From IMG/VR virus record IMGVR_UViG_2541047701_000002: 35,102 nt of DNA, one strand, 5' to 3'. Numbering within the stretch: position 1 is the first letter of the stretch; every line of letters begins with the position of its first letter. The notes beneath the pieces were generated by a model that worked only from the letters and a program-made list of their open reading frames with translations, was not told the DNA's origin and did no database searches. The position numbers and the translations under genes are program-made. Below are positions 8,125-34,463 of the stretch, in pieces. This DNA comes from a virus. Its lineage: Duplodnaviria > Heunggongvirae > Uroviricota > Caudoviricetes.

Positions 8125-10682
8125 CGTCCACCTCCGGAGAACAGACCACCATCGCGCATCTGTGCCTGGATTTCATCACGGGCACCCTTGCGGGCCATGT
8201 CATACACCGCCTTCATCATCTGTGGACCTGGCAGACCATTCGTACCGTCGTTCTGAATCACCACGTTGTTGTTCTGCTCAAACCTGATACCCTCTGAACG
8301 CCGCATTTGCGCCGGACTTCCGGTGCCACCGACATAACCGCCGGTGGCATAGCCGCGCATCAGCCGGTAGAGATTTCCCACGCCAATCCGGCTGGTTGCC
8401 TCCTTCGTGAAGACAAATTCACCACGGTGAACAATCCCCGCTGGCTCATATTTGCCGCCGGTTCCCGTAAATCCTCCGGTTGCAAAATGGAGTTTCGCCG
8501 CAGCGGCCTGAATGGCTGTACCGCCTGACGCGGATGCGCCGCCACCAACAGCCCCGCCAATAGCGCTGCCGATACTCCCGACAATCCCCACCATTGCCTG
8601 CTTAAGCAGAATTTCTGTCATCATGGACAGCACGGAACGGGTGAAGCTGCGCCAGTTCTGTTCACTGCCGGTCAGCATCGCCGCCATATTCTGCGCAATA
8701 CCATCAAAGGTCTGCGTGGCAGCACTTTTAACCTGCGACATACTGTCCGTGGCACTCTCTTCCCACTCACTCCAGCCGGACTTCAGGCCTGCCATCCAGT
8801 TCCCGCGAAGCAGGTCTTCAGCCGCCCAGGTCTTTTTCTGCTCTGACATGACGTTATTCAGCGCCAGAGGATTATCGCCATACTGTTCCTTCAGGCGCTG
8901 TTCCGTGGCTTCCCGTTCTGCCTGCCGGTCAGTCAGCCCCCGGCTTTTCGCATCAATAGCGGCCCGTTTTGCCCGTTGCTGCTGTGCGAATTTATCCGCC
9001 TGCTGCGCCAGCGCGTTCAGGCGCTCCTGATACGTAACCTTGTCGCCAAGTGCAGCCAGCTGGCGTTTGTACTCCAGCGTCTCATCTTTATGCGCCAGCA
9101 GGGATTTCTCCTGTGCAGACAGCTGGCGACGTTGCGCCGCCTCCTCCAGTACCGCGAACTGACTCTCCGCCTTCCACAAATCCCGGCGCTGCTGGCTGAT
9201 TTTCTCATTTGCTCCGGCATGCTTCTCCAGCGTCCGGAGTTCAGCCTGAAGCGTCAGCAGGGCAGCATGAGCACTGTCTTCCTGACGATCGCCCGCAGAC
9301 ACCTTCACGCCGGACTGTTTCGGCTTTTTCAGCGTCGCTTCATAATCCTTTTTCGCCGCCGCCATCAGCGTGTTGTAATCTGCCTGCAGGATTTTCCCGT
9401 CTTTCAGTGCCTTGTTCAGTTCTTCCTGACGGGCGGTATATTTCTCCAGCGGTGTCTGCAGCCGTTCGTAAGCCTTCTGCGCCTCTTCGGTATATTTCAG
9501 CCGTGATGCTTCGGTATCGCTCTGCTGCTGCGCATTTTTGTCCTGTTGACTCTGCTGTTCAGCCTTCTTTCGGGCGGCTTCAAGCGCAAGACGGGCCTTT
9601 TCACGATCATCCCAGTAACGCGCCCGCGCTTCATCGTTAACAAAATAATCATCCTTGCGCAGATTCCAGATGTCGTCCGCTTTCTTAAACGCAGCCTCTG
9701 CCTTAATCAGCATCTCCTGAGCGGTATCAGGACGACCAATATCCAGCACCGCATCCCACATGGATTTGAATGCCCGTGCTGTCCTGTCTGCCCAGGTTTC
9801 CAGCGTGCCCATGTTCTCTTTCAGGCGTCGGGTCTGGTCATCAAACCCTTTCGTTGCGGCCTCGTTCGCCGCCTGCAATGCCCCGGATTCATCGCCGGAA
9901 CGCTGCAACTGAGCAACATACGCAATCTGCTCCGCCGTTACGTTATGGAACTGGCGCGCCATCGCCGTCAGCCCCGACGTCGGGTCAGTGGTCAGCTTCC
10001 CGAAGGCTTCAGCGACCTTGTCCACCTCCACGCCGGATGCAGAGGAGAAACGCGCCACACTCTGGCTGATGGATGCAATCTGAGCCTCACCGCTTACTCC
10101 CGCCTTAACCAGTGCGCTGAGTGACTCGCTGGTCTGGTTAAACGTCAGCCCTGCCGCCTGCCCGGCTCTGGACAGGACCAGCATACGATCTGCCGTCAGA
10201 CCCGACTGATTGCCGGAAAGGACCAGCGTTTTGTTGAAATCGGACAGGGTTGAGTTACCCTGATACCAGGCATACGCCAGCGCACCGGTCGCCACCGCCA
10301 GCGAGGTGGCCCCGACCATCGGCAGGGTGATCGCACCGGCAAGCCCCCGGAACATGGGGATCATCCCGCCGAAGGAGTCCTTAACCTGACCACCCTGTTG
10401 CAGCAGGATCAGCCACGGGCTTTGCCCGCCTGCAAGCTGCGTGGCCACGTCGGTGAACTGTGCAGGCAGCATACGCATGGCGGCTTTATACTGCCCGACG
10501 GAAATCCCCGCTTTCTGTGCAGCCAGCGCCTGTCGGCTCAGCGACTGTTCAACGACTGCCGCTGTTTTTTTCGCATCACTTTCCGTACCGGAAAAATGAC
10601 GCCTGACTCTGGCCATCTGCTCGTCAAATCTGGCCGCATCCAGACTTAAATCAACGACCAGATCGCCTACCGGTTCAGCCAT
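8121..10682 (-). CDS. H: Tail tape measure protein H
   Basis: 853 aa (same length as lambda H); coiled-coil rich; lambda H-like N- and C-termini. Confidence 0.95.
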   Translation of the reverse strand: MAEPVGDLVVDLSLDAARFDEQMARVRRHFSGTESDAKKTAAVVEQSLSRQALAAQKAGISVGQYKAAMRMLPAQFTDVATQLAGGQSPWLILLQQGGQVKDSFGGMIPMFRGLAGAITLPMVGATSLAVATGALAYAWYQGNSTLSDFNKTLVLSGNQSGLTADRMLVLSRAGQAAGLTFNQTSESLSALVKAGVSGEAQIASISQSVARFSSASGVEVDKVAEAFGKLTTDPTSGLTAMARQFHNVTAEQIAYVAQLQRSGDESGALQAANEAATKGFDDQTRRLKENMGTLETWADRTARAFKSMWDAVLDIGRPDTAQEMLIKAEAAFKKADDIWNLRKDDYFVNDEARARYWDDREKARLALEAARKKAEQQSQQDKNAQQQSDTEASRLKYTEEAQKAYERLQTPLEKYTARQEELNKALKDGKILQADYNTLMAAAKKDYEATLKKPKQSGVKVSAGDRQEDSAHAALLTLQAELRTLEKHAGANEKISQQRRDLWKAESQFAVLEEAAQRRQLSAQEKSLLAHKDETLEYKRQLAALGDKVTYQERLNALAQQADKFAQQQRAKRAAIDAKSRGLTDRQAEREATEQRLKEQYGDNPLALNNVMSEQKKTWAAEDLLRGNWMAGLKSGWSEWEESATDSMSQVKSAATQTFDGIAQNMAAMLTGSEQNWRSFTRSVLSMMTEILLKQAMVGIVGSIGSAIGGAVGGGASASGGTAIQAAAAKLHFATGGFTGTGGKYEPAGIVHRGEFVFTKEATSRIGVGNLYRLMRGYATGGYVGGTGSPAQMRRSEGIRFEQNNNVVIQNDGTNGLPGPQMMKAVYDMARKGARDEIQAQMRDGGLFSGGGR

Positions 10683-22175: not shown

Positions 22176-22502
22176 TCAAGGACGTGACGGCGTAAAGATA
22201 AATTGTCTCTTCACTCCCTGACAGGGGCGATTCTTTTCAAATCGCCATTTCGCCATGGCCTTCACCACTTCATCACGAAACAAATTATGAGGCTCTGAGC
22301 GGAGAAAAACGATCCGTGTCACAGTCCCATCAGCACCAATATCGAACTTAACCTCAACCAGCCCCTTGATATAATTTGCTGCAGCATATTCCGGATATCG
22401 TGGATACACCGTCACTAATTGCCGGGGCTCATCAGCTTTTTGCTGCGAGCATCCCACTGCCAGGACAGATAACAGAAAAAGTAGTAAAAGGCGTCTTTTC
22501 AT
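22176..22502 (-). CDS. Putative envelope lipoprotein with TonB C-terminal-like domain (YbcV-like)
   Basis: Start trimmed to MKRRLLLLFLLSVLAVGC (lipobox-like LAVGC); C-terminal YPRYPEYAAANYIKGLVEVKFDIGADGTVTRIVFLRSEP...WRF resembles the TonB C-terminal fold. Confidence 0.6.
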   Translation of the reverse strand: MKRRLLLLFLLSVLAVGCSQQKADEPRQLVTVYPRYPEYAAANYIKGLVEVKFDIGADGTVTRIVFLRSEPHNLFRDEVVKAMAKWRFEKNRPCQGVKRQFIFTPSRP

Positions 22503-22982
22503 TTTTATTCCTACGGGTCTTATTCTGACAATATATCCTGTGTTCCAGACTGCCACATCACCACATCCTGTGCCATTATCTGACTCACATTACATACATC
22601 GCATCGGGATACAGTAGTAGCACTTTCTGTAATACAGCTTCCTGTTTCTTCCACCATCGCACCGGGATAAACCCGCGAATCATTAACGCGGTAAAAACCC
22701 GGTGTGCATCGTTTTTAATTATTCCCGCACACTCACGCAGAAGGAATTCCCCGTCGGGCTACGGTCATGGTTAATGCGGGAATACGGCGACGATACAGCG
22801 CAGCTAAAAGGGTAATGGACGGATAGACCGGTTTATTTCATTCCACAGGATTCTGAGTGTCCCCAACTTCCTCCAATAGTCTGAGCCCACCTGTGTAGTT
22901 TTAATTTTCATCAATCCATTTAACTATCGTTTAATTGTTGTCACATAGGATTCTGCCGTTTTTAACAATGCAGGATAATAAG

Positions 22983-23307: not shown

Positions 23308-23769
23308 CTATCTGCACTGCTCATTAATATACTTCTGGGTTCCTTCCAGTTGTTTTTGCATAGTGATCAGCCTCTCTCTGAGGGTGAAATAATCCCGTTC
23401 AGCGGTGTCTGCCAGTCGGGGGGAGGCTGCATTATCCACGCCGGAGGCGGTGGTGGCTTCACGCACTGACTGACAGACTGCTTTGATGTGCAACCGACGA
23501 CGACCAGCGGCAACATCATCACGCAGAGCATCATTTTCAGCTTTCGCATCAGCTAACTCCTTCGTGTATTTTGCATCGAGCGCAGCAACATCACGCTGAC
23601 GCATCTGTATGTCAGTAATTACCGCGTTCGCCAGCGTCAGTTCTCTGGCATTTTTGTCGCGCTGGGCTTTGTAGGTAATGGCGTTATCACGGTAATGATT
23701 AACAGCCCATGACAGGCAGACGATGATGCAGATAACCAGAGCGGAGATAATCGCGGTTACTCTGTTCAT
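23308..23769 (-). CDS. Rz: Spanin inner-membrane subunit Rz
   Basis: [39 protein letters not shown] matches lambda Rz (153 aa); ATGA overlap with the R stop. Confidence 0.93.
23367..23549 (-). CDS. Rz1: Spanin outer-membrane lipoprotein Rz1 (embedded in Rz, +1 frame)
   Basis: 60 aa, [49 protein letters not shown] matches lambda Rz1. Confidence 0.9.
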
Positions 23770-24263
23770 TGCTGACCCCACAAACAGATTTCACGCTCAA
23801 TCTCACGACGAGTCATGAGACCTTTCCATTGCTTACCGCCAGCATATGTCCAGCGACGTAGCTGATCACATGCGCCTTTGATATCGCCCTGGTTTATTTT
23901 GCGAAGAAGCGTCGATGTTCTGAAATTGCCAGCACCCACGTTGTAAACGAATGAGTAAAGAGCGCCGCGCATTGTTTCCGGTATATCGACTTTGATGTAC
24001 GGGTTAATTTGTCTGGCGACCGTGGCAAGGTCTTTATTCAGGAGGGCTTTGCATTCTGCTTTGGTATACGTTTTACCGAGCATGATGTCTTTTCCTGTAT
24101 GCCCGTGACATACAGTCCATACACCAACAATATCTTTGTATGGTATGTAGCTGACACCTTCCAGACCATCGTTACCACTTGGGCCAGTGATTAACACTGA
24201 TGCTATAGCAATTGCTCCGCCACCAATAGCAGCAGCAACGGCTTTTCGTAATGATGGAGGCAT
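23766..24263 (-). CDS. R: SAR endolysin (phage 21 R-type lysozyme, signal-anchor-release)
   Basis: 165 aa; [30 protein letters not shown] hydrophobic SAR N-terminus plus lysozyme core; matches the phage 21 / DLP12 RrrD type, not the lambda R transglycosylase. Confidence 0.9.
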
Positions 24264-24478
24264 TATTCACCTCTCGCAGCCTTGCGCTTATCTTCTTTAA
24301 TCTTGAAATAAAGGTTTGTCAGGTACGTCAGCAGGCCAAATACCAGGCTACCCAGCACACCTATTGCCGCCCACTGTGAGGGCGTGACTTTATCGAGCAA
24401 CTGTAAAAACCAGTACCCGGCACTACCTGCTGAGGTACCATAGGCGACACCCGTTGTTAACTTATCCATGGATTTCAT
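24263..24478 (-). CDS. S: Pinholin S (phage 21 S21-type, dual-start)
   Basis: 71 aa, [31 protein letters not shown]; two TM segments; Met1 and Met4 dual-start motif typical of S21 / EssD. Confidence 0.9.
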
Positions 24479-24604
24479 AACCCCACCTCGCAGACAAAGC
24501 GGGTGTAAATTAAGGGGATACTACGTATCGCAATAAAGGCAGAAACGTAACAGATTCGGAGTCAGTGAATAACTCAGGTATTGGGTTATCAGCTAATATC
24601 GAGA

Positions 24605-24640
24605 CTCAAAAAATGGAAAAACCCGCTCGACGGCGGGTTT
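24605..24640 (-). terminator. Rho-independent terminator-like hairpin about 130 nt upstream of S (candidate tR'-type late terminator)
   Basis: Minus strand AAACCCGCCGTCGAGCGGGTTT followed by TTCCATTTTTTGAG. Confidence 0.45.
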
Positions 24641-25066
24641 AAGCTGTGTGACGAAGTAACCACTCTTAACAGCATAACCAATTTTTTACGTACGTAAACT
24701 ACTAAATGATATTTGTGAGAATGCCACCGAGTGTTCAAAACACCACCACAAATGCATAAGAAAACTTCAACAAATAACCAGTTAATAATTTCCGACGTTA
24801 TTTTTAGTTTGTTTAAATTAAGCTAAAGAATTATAGAGCACTTATAAATAAGTGCCATTAATATAAATTAGCTAATAGATTTATTTTTGTTCAGACAAGA
24901 GCCATGAATAGGATTAGATAGAAAAGGTTCAGATAAAAATAGAGATCTACTTCACAAATTAAATGAGAAACTAAAACTTACATCTTGAAATAATCACATT
25001 GATTAGATGAATATTTATCGCGCAGTGACATCATTTTTTAATAATAGTTCAAAAAAAGGGCGTACA

Positions 25067-26149
25067 ATGAAAAAATTAACAGTGGCAATTTCTGCTGTAG
25101 CTGCATCAGTACTGATGGCGATGTCTGCTCAGGCAGCTGAAATTTATAATAAAGACAGTAACAAGCTGGATCTATACGGGAAAGTTAATGCCAAGCACTA
25201 CTTCTCCTCTAATGATGCAGATGATGGTGATACTACTTATGCCCGTCTTGGCTTCAAAGGTGAAACCCAAATCAACGATCAACTGACTGGTTTCGGTCAG
25301 TGGGAATATGAATTCAAAGGCAACCGTGCTGAATCTCAAGGTTCTTCCAAAGACAAAACCCGTCTTGCATTTGCAGGCCTGAAATTTGGTGATTACGGCT
25401 CAATCGATTACGGCCGTAACTACGGTGTAGCATACGACATCGGTGCGTGGACTGACGTTCTGCCAGAATTCGGTGGTGATACCTGGACCCAAACAGATGT
25501 GTTCATGACTGGTCGCACTACTGGTGTTGCAACTTATCGTAACAACGACTTCTTTGGTCTGGTCGATGGCCTGAACTTTGCTGCTCAGTATCAGGGTAAA
25601 AATGACCGCACTGACGTAACTGAAGCCAATGGTGATGGTTTCGGTTTCTCCACTACTTATGAGTATGAAGGATTCGGCGTGGGTGCAACCTATGCTAAAT
25701 CAGATCGCACTGACGGTCAGGTCGCCTATGGTAAGAGCAAATTCAATGCCTCCGGCAAAAATGCGGAAGTATGGGCTGCAGGCCTGAAATATGATGCGAA
25801 CAATATCTATCTGGCTACCACATATTCTGAAACTCAGAATATGACCGTTTTTGGTAATAACCATATTGCAAACAAAGCACAAAACTTTGAAGCAGTAGCA
25901 CAATATCAGTTTGACTTCGGTCTGCGTCCATCTGTTGCTTACCTTCAGTCAAAAGGTAAAGACCTTGGTGTTCATGGTGACCGAGACTTAGTCAAGTATG
26001 TCGATGTCGGTGCTACTTACTACTTTAATAAAAACATGTCCACTTTTGTTGATTACAAAATCAACTTAATTGACGATAGTAAGTTTACCAAAACAGCTGG
26101 TATTGATACCGACGACATCGTCGCTGTAGGTCTGGTTTATCAGTTCTAA
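25067..26149 (+). CDS. nmpC: Outer membrane porin, phage Lc / NmpC family (OmpC-like; lysogenic conversion)
   Basis: Start trimmed to [23 protein letters not shown] signal peptide; [17 protein letters not shown]...GLVYQF with C-terminal Phe; typical general porin; opposite strand to the flanking Q and lysis genes. Confidence 0.92.
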
Positions 26150-26159
26150 TCTGACTTAC

Positions 26160-26200
26160 GAAAAAGATATGTTGCGGGAGGCTTTGCCTCCGCAACATAT
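26160..26200 (-). terminator. Strong hairpin with U-run on the minus strand (terminator about 140 nt downstream of Q; also abuts the porin stop)
   Basis: 15-bp stem with one bulge: ATATGTTGCGG(G)AGGC TTT GCCTCCGCAACATAT; minus strand continues CTTTTTCG. Confidence 0.55.
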
Positions 26201-26287
26201 AAGTGGAGCCCTCAAGCCACTTCCTTTAGAAGCACTACCTTGCTTCTTACTATATAAACCTTCTGTTATATATTACCCTTTATTTTG

Positions 26288-26311
26288 GGGGCGTTTCCAC
26301 GCCCCATTTTT
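26288..26311 (+). terminator. Rho-independent terminator (plus strand) in the porin 3' region
   Basis: GGGGCG tttcca CGCCCC followed by ATTTTT; no T-run on the opposite strand. Confidence 0.55.
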
Positions 26312-26337
26312 AATAACTTTTAGTAAACAATTGCATA

Positions 26338-26721
26338 TCAATTAGAATTATTAGCAACGATATCCATATCTAACCGGATATCTAATGCCATTAACATCCC
26401 TTCAATTATGCCCTCAGCCTTCTGTAACCTTTTCCCGATATAACCATCCGAGCAGCAATGCTTACTTGCCAGTGACATGAATGTCATACCACATACATAA
26501 TAATCTACTAATAAATCGTGTAAATCGCTGTTGTTCTTTTTCAGACGGGCCATGCACCCGCAAATGATCATCGCGTCATCGTCACAACATTGCGGGCGAG
26601 ATTTTACTTTTGAAGGAATTAATCCCTTAAAACCGGCGGCAATGGACGACCAGGTCACATCTTCATGATTATTAGCCGCCCACGCACCCCAACGCTCAAG
26701 AACCATCTGAATATCACGCAT
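26338..26721 (-). CDS. Q: Late gene antiterminator Q (QuuD / phage 21-82 type)
   Basis: Start trimmed to [31 protein letters not shown] (GGAG RBS); 127 aa with Cys-rich zinc-binding-like motifs; matches DLP12 QuuD as I recall it. Confidence 0.85.
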
Positions 26722-34092: not shown

Positions 34093-34190
34093 GATCACCC
34101 AACCACATAAGCTGTGGGATGCAATGCCGAAGCAACCGTCTCAGGAGGAGCTTCGAGATTGCATCGCCAAAGTTTATTCGGGAGGAATCC

Positions 34191-34463
34191 ATGTCCAGAA
34201 AAACAGAATTTAAAGGCACCGCAGCTTCTCGCCGTAGAGCTCGTCGCGCAAATCTGCAAAGTCAGGAGGCGATCAGCTCCGACAAGCTACACAGGCCAAC
34301 CCCTTCACGAGTGGTCTTGCAATGCAAGCTCAAACCAGCAATGAGAGCAGAAGTGATAACTCTGACAACGTTGACCAGAAAATATGAAGGTTCAACTTGT
34401 CTTCCGAACGTAGCTCTTTACGCGGCAGGCTACCGGAAATCAAAACAACTGACGGCGAGATGA
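34191..34463 (+). CDS. N: Antiterminator N (P22 gene-24 type, arginine-rich motif)
   Basis: Start trimmed to MSRKTEFKGTAASRRRARRANLQSQEAISSDK (GGAGGAA RBS); C-terminus PNVALYAAGYRKSKQLTAR resembles P22 N; 90 aa. Confidence 0.8.
   Translation: MSRKTEFKGTAASRRRARRANLQSQEAISSDKLHRPTPSRVVLQCKLKPAMRAEVITLTTLTRKYEGSTCLPNVALYAAGYRKSKQLTAR

Follow-up and report, generated by a model that had tools for sequence, protein, structure and literature searches.

An NmpC/Lc-type porin cassette that probably separates the antiterminator gene Q from its late promoter in a lambda-like prophage

The interval between the lysis gene S and the late antiterminator gene Q of this prophage very probably consists of two independent units: a self-contained porin cassette and, directly upstream of S, a unit made of the late promoter PR' and its terminator tR'. 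Because a homologue of PR' was found between the porin gene and S, the ~1.6-kb cassette appears to sit inserted between Q and PR', and for the same reason the Q-modified late transcript would, in all likelihood, start beyond the porin gene and never cross it. The original prediction had late transcription starting near Q and crossing the porin gene antisense to reach the lysis genes, which the position of this homologue does not support. The features are collected in Table 1, where positions refer to the window, that is, the whole stretch of 35,102 nucleotides analysed; the S-to-Q interval is exactly 24479-26337, as had been delimited before.

Table 1. Features of the S-to-Q interval and of the genes around it
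Feature	Position	Strand	Elements and basis
Lysis cassette	23308-24478	-	Pfam PF04971, PF00959, PF03245 and ORFs
Rz	23308-23781	-	Rz1 embedded at 23367-23549
SAR-type endolysin R	23766-24263	-	part of lysis cassette
S21-type pinholin	24263-24478	-	part of lysis cassette
PR' leader (putative)	24608-24664	-	start near A 24664; hairpin 24640-24619, T-run to 24608 (tR'); terminator scan and fold
Block TAAGAGTGGTTAC	24656-24668	-	spans PR' start
Late promoter PR' (Q933W/QuuD type), by homology	24671-24698	-	-35 TTTACG 24698-24693, 16-bp spacer, -10 TATGCT 24676-24671
Candidate Q-binding dyad TTTACGTACGTAAA	24685-24698	-	-34 to -21 of PR'
Mobile porin cassette (gene with its promoter region and the two terminators)	~24738-26332	+	delimited by copies outside Q-S context
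CRP-like site AGAGA-N6-TCACA	24940-24960	+	equals CRP site 1363-1383 annotated in PA-2 lc record J02580
OmpR-like box TTACATCTTGAAATAA	24978-24993	+	overlaps -35 (or extended -10) of porin promoter
Probable porin promoter	24985-25022	+	-35 TTGAAA 24985-24990, 18-bp spacer, -10 GAATAT 25009-25014, start G 25022
Alternative porin promoter	24986-25001	+	extended -10 TGaAATAAT 24986-24994, start G 25001
essDp of DLP12, published lysis-cassette promoter	25018-25050	-	GAACTA 25050-25045, N16, TCACT 25028-25024, +1 A 25018
Porin gene, 360 aa	25067-26149	+	ORF list and Pfam; mechanical ORF 25007-26149, real start ATG 25067 with AAGGG just before
Porin signal peptide, 23 aa	25067-25135	+	mature part begins AEIYNK
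Intrinsic terminator for transcription leaving Q	26162-26201	-	15-bp stem, then CUUUUUCG
Porin terminator, GGGGCGTTTCCACGCCCC then ATTTTT	26288-26311	+	terminator scan; hairpin 26288-26305, then T-run
Late antiterminator Q (QuuD/Q933W type)	26338-26721	-	127 aa from ATG; mechanical ORF from TTG 26736; Pfam PF06530, 7.7e-54
Antiterminator N	34119-34463		PF25694, 9.7e-33

The porin gene is intact and encodes a complete protein of the OmpC family, from the signal peptide to a C-terminal phenylalanine (VYQF), on the plus strand, as had been described from the sequence at first; the minus strand carries Q, the S21-type holin, R and Rz. The translation contains the loop-3 constriction motif PEFGGD, residues 29-360 match positions 1-337 of the 337 in the Pfam profile Porin_1 (PF00267, E = 1.9e-151), and the NCBIfam OmpC subfamily model is matched with 521 bits for a cut-off of 484. 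Alignment to solved OmpC and OmpK36 structures (E ~1e-137, the mature part aligning from residue 24 with OmpC chains) suggests a 16-stranded trimeric pore-forming beta-barrel. Protein identity amounts to 91-94% with Lc and other alleles of E. coli prophages, 76-81% with chromosomal OmpD-type porins, of which OmpD itself gives 80-81%, and ~62-65% with other enterobacterial porins; by this measure the protein belongs to the NmpC/Lc/OmpD subfamily and is nearer to Lc/NmpC than to OmpC, OmpF or PhoE. The designation as an NmpC/Lc-type porin moron holds, given 91% identity to Lc of phage PA-2, a layout like that of K-12 DLP12 and a promoter region and terminator of its own. Indeed, the cassette combines its own promoter and terminators with a deviating composition and with presence or absence among related phages. 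A general porin would be made in the lysogen, from a sigma-70 promoter of the cassette.

The ends of the cassette were drawn from a copy found outside any Q-S context and from the breaks of homology with the Stx phage Sp5. E. coli PSUO2 carries the cassette beside yedK, with homology spanning positions 260-1854 of the query, and these boundaries agree with the Sp5 comparison, in which homology ends at 26389 and resumes at 24701, so that 1,687 nt in the window replace 86 nt of Sp5. The upstream region had been described as an AT-rich stretch of roughly 590 bp belonging to the porin. The S-porin intergenic stretch is indeed AT-rich and 588 bp long (24479-25066), but strong AT-richness is limited to ~24700-25100 (24-28% GC, vs ~47% in the flanks) and only ~330 bp (24738-25066) are the share of the porin cassette. 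On the Q side, the expected plus-strand terminator is present after the porin (fold of -13.8 kcal/mol, z = -2.5) and ends 27 nt short of the Q stop codon. It is accompanied by a minus-strand terminator, 12-50 nt past the porin stop codon, whose fold of -22.3 kcal/mol (z = -4.3) was equalled by none of 200 shuffled sequences. These back-to-back terminators insulate the cassette on the Q side: in such a crossed arrangement, porin transcripts would be halted before Q, and transcripts leaving Q before the porin.

The position of PR' was derived from homology with Sp5, whose Q is 81% identical to the Q of the window over 120 aa (81-84% for Q of 933W-like Stx phages). In Sp5, the PR' start mapped by dRNA-seq lies 258 nt before the tR' end, and RNase E cuts at +173 (PMC7547250). 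On the Sakai sequence, the 258-nt length and the +173 cut (RNase E site GU/AUU) can be reconciled solely with a start 7 nt downstream of TATCAT, and alignments show that the PR' of the window is homologous to this TTTACG-N16-TATCAT promoter. The homologous block (24698-24608, minus strand) occurs as a single copy in the whole window, and the block that spans the PR' start (Table 1) is invariant in 6 phages or prophages. The leader is predicted to give a short RNA of ~50-57 nt, ended by tR', the sole predicted terminator before S; how efficiently this hairpin terminates is uncertain, since the homologous first hairpin of Sp5 lets some transcripts pass (the 258-nt RNA was seen). PR' is separated from the Q stop codon by 1.64 kb, with the porin cassette between them, a departure from the usual Q-PR' adjacency, and this placement implies that Q would act in trans on a promoter ~1.7 kb from its own gene. 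DLP12 Q activates the lysis cassette despite the presence of nmpC::IS5 in between (as cited in PMC7918800).

Both the exact start sites and the loading of Q at PR' are inferred. Loading at 24698-24664 is proposed from homology. The dyad overlapping PR' is a candidate Q-binding element and changes with the Q variant; its form is unlike the Q21 direct repeat. An element of the Q21 type was considered for the Q of the window, which is only distantly related to Q21, and was rejected: the TGAGCA direct repeat is absent from the window, the lone match, at 9202, having 3 mismatches (chance level). Other candidates were set aside as well. The minus-strand promoter-like sequence ATGGCA-17-TATAAT (24858-24830) lies in DNA of 24% GC, has a -10 that is not conserved among alleles and lacks a homologue in Stx phages; it is probably due to chance. 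The "CRP site 1" of PA-2 (J02580 1067-1087) maps to 24644-24664, which places it inside the PR' leader, 400 nt away from the porin, and we regard it as a sequence-only prediction of 1986 and not as a porin regulatory site. No Rfam family reached the gathering threshold in the window, and the matches in 24300-26500 did not rise above chance level; the prophage sRNA svsR, which is located at the cI 3' end, is unrelated.

A PR' directly downstream of Q, the arrangement of lambda, 21 and 933W, from which the late transcript would cross the whole porin antisense and couple the porin to induction by convergence, would have precedents: phage 21 and the Stx phages have PR' beside Q, and such a topology exists elsewhere, in Lambda_ev066, where a lipocalin gene on the opposite strand comes after a probable PR'-tR' beside Q. 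In the present prophage this arrangement is nevertheless highly improbable: the promoter scan gave no minus-strand promoter-like site at 26337-26150, the only block homologous to the cognate Sp5 PR' lies beyond the porin, a strong minus-strand terminator stands between Q and the porin, and no Q21-type element is present. As PR' lies beyond the porin, a terminator follows Q and no promoter-like site was found beside Q, the idea that convergent late transcription couples porin expression to lysis has no basis. Antisense passage across the porin would be left to early transcripts antiterminated by N, if polymerases coming from pR and modified by N, after transcribing the replication genes, the nin genes and Q, pass the 26201-26162 terminator and traverse the porin in the early lytic phase. 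In lambda, N-modified complexes read through intrinsic terminators, the window encodes N as well as cI, cro-like and cII genes (nin genes and Nu1 are present too), and early antisense transcription is compatible with the two-unit organisation that we prefer. The strong terminator after Q suggests, however, that insulation was selected for, if perhaps only in the lysogen, and we consider such early crossing a genuine possibility, albeit not the expected outcome.

It might also be argued that essDp, an RpoE-type promoter whose elements lie in the porin 5'UTR, provides most of the transcription of the lysis cassette. Its start would be ~4 nt from the opposite porin start, the polymerases would be mutually exclusive, and basal lysis-gene expression would be linked to that of the porin via promoter competition and not via convergence. 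We deduced its position from the primers of the "-121 to +650" DLP12 fragment (PMC7918800, Table S1), which put +1 at ~25018, and read the motif from the sequence; GAACTA-N16-TCACT is present and conserved, and control of the DLP12 cassette by RpoE and Q is cited in the same paper. Transcripts from essDp would still need to pass the terminator of the PR' leader. Stx phages of the same Q family share the 24698-24608 block but have no equivalent of essDp, and genomic SELEX with RpoE gave no peak at this spacer, where only an RpoS-holoenzyme peak is found. We therefore hold essDp to be an improbable main promoter of the lysis genes and retain PR' upstream of S in this role. A published DLP12 study, to judge from the primers in PMC7918800, sets an RpoE-type lysis promoter beside the nmpC start codon, a placement that counts against our reading of PR'.

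Concerning the porin promoter, alignment with Salmonella ompD sets the probable -35 opposite TTGAAC. In K-12, 5'RACE shows that PnmpC is active and starts at a "G" (PMC11677980); G 25022, which equals the centre of the ChIP-exo peak minus 43 nt, and G 25001 both fit this published start. When the sign of the ChIP-exo "distance to TSS" (+43) is taken literally, the nmpC start would fall ~131 nt (not 45) upstream of the ATG, at ~24936, which is not a G. The 5'UTR of the porin would be about 45 or 66 nt, as against 69 nt in Salmonella ompD.

The upstream region had also been said to contain a sequence resembling the OmpR boxes of ompC/ompF. This box is present, but the pattern match is not significant alone (3 mismatches to the ompC C1-like pattern; one match or more also turned up in 31 of 100 shuffled sequences), and it is the single match, with 3 mismatches, upstream of the porin, where three OmpR sites of 20 bp in tandem, as expected at ~-100 to -40, were not found. 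The box is invariant in 7 aligned alleles, with the whole proximal 150 bp equally invariant. In K-12, the OmpR ChIP-exo peak P4 (576106-576166) lies on the nmpC promoter with the mode "Rep", and the nmpC transcript goes from 19 to 46.5 FPKM (log2 +1.29) between two strains of the expression table. This peak maps to ~24949-25009 in the window. Since the box lies inside the peak, on sequence identical to K-12, and overlaps the core promoter, control of the porin by host OmpR, as had been suggested, is plausible; it would be repression, however, and is already published for K-12 nmpC. CRP activates nmpC (PMC11677980), a known CRP target that was recovered also by genomic SELEX. Carrying over the regulation of K-12 nmpC and PA-2 lc, we suggest that the two host regulators would act on the porin promoter, CRP by activating it and OmpR by repressing it through binding across the core promoter.

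A porin moron is textbook lysogenic conversion and nothing new as such. The correction concerns the late promoter, which would not be beside Q in a module that almost half of the complete E. coli genomes contain; assuming a lambda-like adjacency would lead one to predict, wrongly, antisense transcription of the porin and to misplace the PR'-derived short RNA. We thus propose a precise PR'/tR' position for DLP12-type prophages, which differs from the published essDp. A broader and rather doubtful extension would be that the Q/PR' junction of the Q933W/QuuD family serves repeatedly as an insertion site for cargo on the opposite strand, with the cargo shielded from late transcription and flanked by crossed terminators, that the dyad at -34 to -21 is the Q-binding element and varies with Q, and that porin and essDp starts 4 nt apart impose mutually exclusive expression. 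Cargo at this junction is seen elsewhere, as two genes of unknown function in Shigella phage SfII and a 248-aa protein of unknown function in E. coli F1053. Lambda_ev066 was rejected as a further case, its probable PR'-tR' lying beside Q.

The Q-porin-S module is already known as that of the long-known NmpC/Lc porin gene of lambda-like E. coli prophages; we found it in phage 434B, in 36 phage records and in ~2,466 of 5,426 complete E. coli genomes. In K-12 DLP12 (qsr'), order and strands are the same (quuD on the minus strand, nmpC on the plus strand, essD-rrrD-rzpD on the minus strand, bor on the plus strand), DNA identity is ~88% across the interval, and the proximal promoter, OmpR-like box and PR' block are identical. 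IS5 disrupts the K-12 nmpC close to the 3' end, but the porin of the window is intact; the variable loop blocks differ, and 17 bp of the S leader are deleted in K-12. The lc porin of phage PA-2 (J02580) shares the signal peptide and first 180 residues identically and the same flanks (Q-side spacer 93.7% identical, PR' block), with CRP sites annotated upstream; five short blocks differ, Lc is 5 residues longer, and the tR' hairpin of PA-2 has one mismatch. The nearest chromosomal relatives are OmpD of Salmonella enterica and OmpD-like porins of Citrobacter and Enterobacter, which have the -35 region (AAACTTA..TTGAA) in common with the porin promoter but lack Q/S flanks and differ in the rest of the upstream region. 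Compared with ompC/ompF, the box of the window resembles one OmpR half-site pair, unlike the three-site activator array of these genes. As for late control, the Stx phages 933W and Sp5, whose PR'-tR' unit gives rise to the StxS RNA, share with the window the promoter, the start region with TAAGAGTGGTTAC and the first hairpin, but their -35 overlaps the end of Q and their leader runs 258 nt to a second terminator, whereas the unit of the window lies ~1.7 kb from Q. Finally, the PR' of phage 21 has the same short-leader design, with an annotated terminator at +3 to +50.

The interval 24479-26337 is the exact gap between the start codon of S and the stop codon of Q, and its long plus-strand ORF encodes a porin, for which the ATG at 25067 is the biologically sensible choice of true start. 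The translation displays a typical signal peptide with cleavage before AEIYNK, carries PEFGGD, the loop-3 motif, and ends in Phe; Pfam Porin_1 covers it end to end (E = 1.9e-151) and solved OmpC/OmpK36 chains align with it from residue 24 on (~1e-137). The original prediction of a plus-strand porin gene between Q and S, with an AT-rich upstream region and its own terminator, is thus confirmed: the ORF, its minus-strand neighbours (besides S and Q, endolysin and Rz, bor coming next on the plus strand), the low-GC upstream region (only 24-28% GC across 24700-25100), the terminator and the OmpR-like box are all present. The protein falls within the NmpC/Lc family of phage porins and represents a classic moron, in a module already well described.

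Features of the Q-porin-S region (window positions)
Feature	Position	Strand	Basis or detail
Holin S, S21-type pinholin	24263-24478	-	
PR' leader hairpin, GC-rich, then T-run	24640-24619	-	
PR' start	near 24664	-	Sp5 homology
PR' -10 TATGCT	24676-24671	-	Sp5 homology
PR' -35 TTTACG	24698-24693	-	Sp5 homology
Invariant run TAAGAGTGGTTAC of PR' block		-	shared with Sp5
OmpR-like box TTACATCTTGAAATAA	24978-24993		pattern match
Plus-strand ORF	25007-26149	+	sole long plus-strand ORF of 24479-26337
Porin gene	25067-26149	+	ATG 25067 after AAGGG; 360 aa
Terminator between Q and porin	26201-26162	-	15-bp hairpin then CUUUUUCG; -22.3 kcal/mol, z = -4.3
Porin terminator	26288-26305, then T-run	+	terminator scan and fold
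Q	stop codon at 26338	-	PF06530

It had also been proposed that late transcription from beside Q crosses the porin antisense, and this is not supported, since a homologue of the mapped Sp5 PR' (the Q-dependent late promoter) sits between the porin and S. The window Q is distant from that of phage 21 (E = 4e-8 over 80 residues) and 81% identical over 120 residues to its counterparts in the Stx phages 933W and Sakai Sp5. For Sp5, the PR' start was located by dRNA-seq, the 3' end of the leader terminator tR' was placed by Term-seq 258 nt downstream of it, and RNase E cleavage of the leader was found between GU and AUU at +173 (Sy et al., PMC7547250). Both distances fit, in the Sakai sequence, a start at the A 7 nt past TATCAT; Sp5 PR' reads TTTACG-N16-TATCAT, with a -35 overlapping the final Q codons. 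The window contains a single copy of the homologous block, on the minus strand between porin and S, and the promoter scan found no minus-strand promoter-like site between Q and the porin, which also opposes the antisense model, as does the hairpin following Q.

Homology to Sp5 covers the first 112 Q codons (26723-26389), breaks and resumes at 24701, 86 nt of Sp5 standing against 1,687 nt here. The minus-strand hairpin at 26201-26162 would be expected to halt transcription leaving Q ahead of the porin, whose own terminator ends 27 nt from Q; crossed terminators thus enclose the cassette. In E. coli PSUO2, a copy lying beside yedK without the Q-S context (L012 2001-3595) sets its limits at ~24738 and 26332, in agreement with the Sp5 break points. 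The PR' site, the break points, the crossed terminators and the PSUO2 limits lead us to conclude, from sequence comparison, that the porin cassette is inserted between Q and PR'. Q would then act in trans across ~1.7 kb, and the late transcript, begun at PR' on the S side, would not cross the porin. This position agrees with the activation of the lysis cassette by the Q of DLP12 despite an intervening nmpC::IS5, as cited in PMC7918800. The useful result is the corrected position of the late promoter. Outside the Q-S context, the cassette sits between yedK and ybcM-ybcL-emrE (PSUO2 and E. coli TC24), and in TC24 (L011 2501-2870) it is reduced to the promoter and the first ~35 nt of the gene.

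PMC7918800 describes a DLP12 lysis promoter cloned as "-121 to +650" after Rueggeberg et al. 2015, and the Table S1 primers of that source put its +1 at ~25018 on the minus strand, where we found an RpoE-like motif, GAACTA-N16-TCACT. If real, this promoter would serve the lysis genes, starting ~4 nt from where porin transcription likely begins and pointing the other way; being placed between the porin gene and S, it contradicts the antisense model too. Antisense crossing could still occur early in lytic growth, if N-modified pR transcripts read past the terminator after Q, and the prophage encodes N, cI, a cro-like gene and cII. A promoter-like ATGGCA-17-TATAAT (24830-24858, minus strand), whose -10 varies among alleles, was also observed in the AT-rich porin upstream region, aimed at S, and an RpoS-holoenzyme SELEX peak is reported in the corresponding K-12 spacer (576032).

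A dyad-symmetric sequence lies across the PR' -35 (24685-24698, minus strand), as well as at 812-825 of comparison locus L008, with equivalents in L005 and L094 (E. coli F1053). It reads TTTACGTACGTAAA in the window, TTTACGATCGTAAA in Sp5, GCGTACGC in SfII and GCGGTCCGC in E. coli F1053, varying with the Q variant (81%, 43% and 50% identical to the window Q), and the -10-to-hairpin block is invariant. We consider it a candidate Q-binding element of the Q933W/QuuD family. Other cargo occupies the same slot: Shigella phage SfII carries SfII_49 and SfII_50, of unknown function, on the opposite strand between a PF06530-type Q and the PR' block (L093 2582-4196), and E. coli F1053 an opposite-strand 248-aa protein (L094 2238-2984) with no Pfam match. 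In Lambda_ev066 (L095 2893-3760), Q is followed directly by a stretch resembling a promoter and by a tR'-like terminator, GCCAGCCTCCCCAAAGGCTGGTTTTTTTT, and then by an opposite-strand gene for the lipocalin Blc; this gene seems to lie downstream of PR', a counter-example in which late transcription may truly cross a moron antisense.

The suggestion of OmpR control stands in part. Judged by pattern, the box is a weak match (three mismatches to an ompC C1-like pattern, equalled by 31 of 100 shuffles), but K-12 nmpC is an OmpR target with a ChIP-exo peak, P4 (576106-576166, mode "Rep"; Seo et al., PMC5438342). Converted through NC_000913.3 coordinates with the 777-bp shift between genome versions, this peak covers window 24949-25009, 58-118 nt upstream of the ATG, and has the box at its centre. 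The same paper names nmpC as the only repressed gene known before it, with reference to Coll et al. 1994. The box is invariant in seven alleles, as is the entire proximal 150 bp. At PnmpC, CRP acts as an activator through two sites, OmpR, IHF and MprA act as repressors, RyhB exerts further control, and 5'RACE gives a "G" as the start (PMC11677980). Genomic SELEX recovers nmpC as a CRP target, and CRP sites are annotated in the PA-2 lc record J02580. The -35 TTGAAA (24985-24990), which aligns with TTGAAC of Salmonella ompD, an 18-bp spacer and a -10 GAATAT point to a likely start at G 25022, which coincides with the centre of the ChIP peak less 43 nt; a start at G 25001, served by an extended -10 (TGaAATAAT), is the alternative. 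With either start the box overlaps the core promoter, which fits repression and not ompC-like activation. Given the published repression and the box at the peak centre, host osmoregulatory control of the phage porin is plausible here, and already known. The upstream "CRP site" of the 1986 PA-2 record maps to 24644-24664, the first 20 nt of the PR' leader and 400 nt from the porin start, and more likely belongs to the late leader than to porin regulation.

The closest chromosomal relatives of the porin are of OmpD type (Salmonella, Citrobacter, Enterobacter; 76-81% identity). E. coli alleles are mosaic (porin alignment A5), with the first 180 residues nearly invariant and differences confined to five short blocks, which we take from the known OmpF/OmpC topology to be outer loops L4-L8 and which probably form surface loops, the pattern expected under selection by phages or antibodies. 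RefSeq/PGAP names the gene "porin OmpC" because the NCBIfam OmpC subfamily cut-off is passed (521 bits against 484), and many E. coli genomes therefore seem to carry two ompC genes.

The 2.6-kb Q-porin-S stretch is entire in 36 phage records at 93-99.9% identity (e.g. ev017, PhiR57_1), and the porin interval is matched in 3,340 of 5,426 complete E. coli genomes, with coverage of 80% or more in 2,466. The genes of K-12 DLP12 match in order and strand, quuD(-), nmpC(+), essD-rrrD-rzpD(-), bor(+), except that nmpC is split by IS5, and the PA-2 lc record (1986) represents the same region, with a Lc protein 91% identical to ours. A small TonB C-terminal domain protein (PF03544, 1.1e-12; 22176-22556, minus strand) between bor and the cos/Nu1 region is another accessory gene at the end of the late region, and phage 21 likewise has one there (CPT_21_73). 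As annotated, phage 21 also shares the short-leader design, its terminator lying within ~55 nt and spanning +3 to +50. Finally, the late unit of the window behaves as the Q933W PR'/tR' pair does, except that the usual adjacency to Q is missing.
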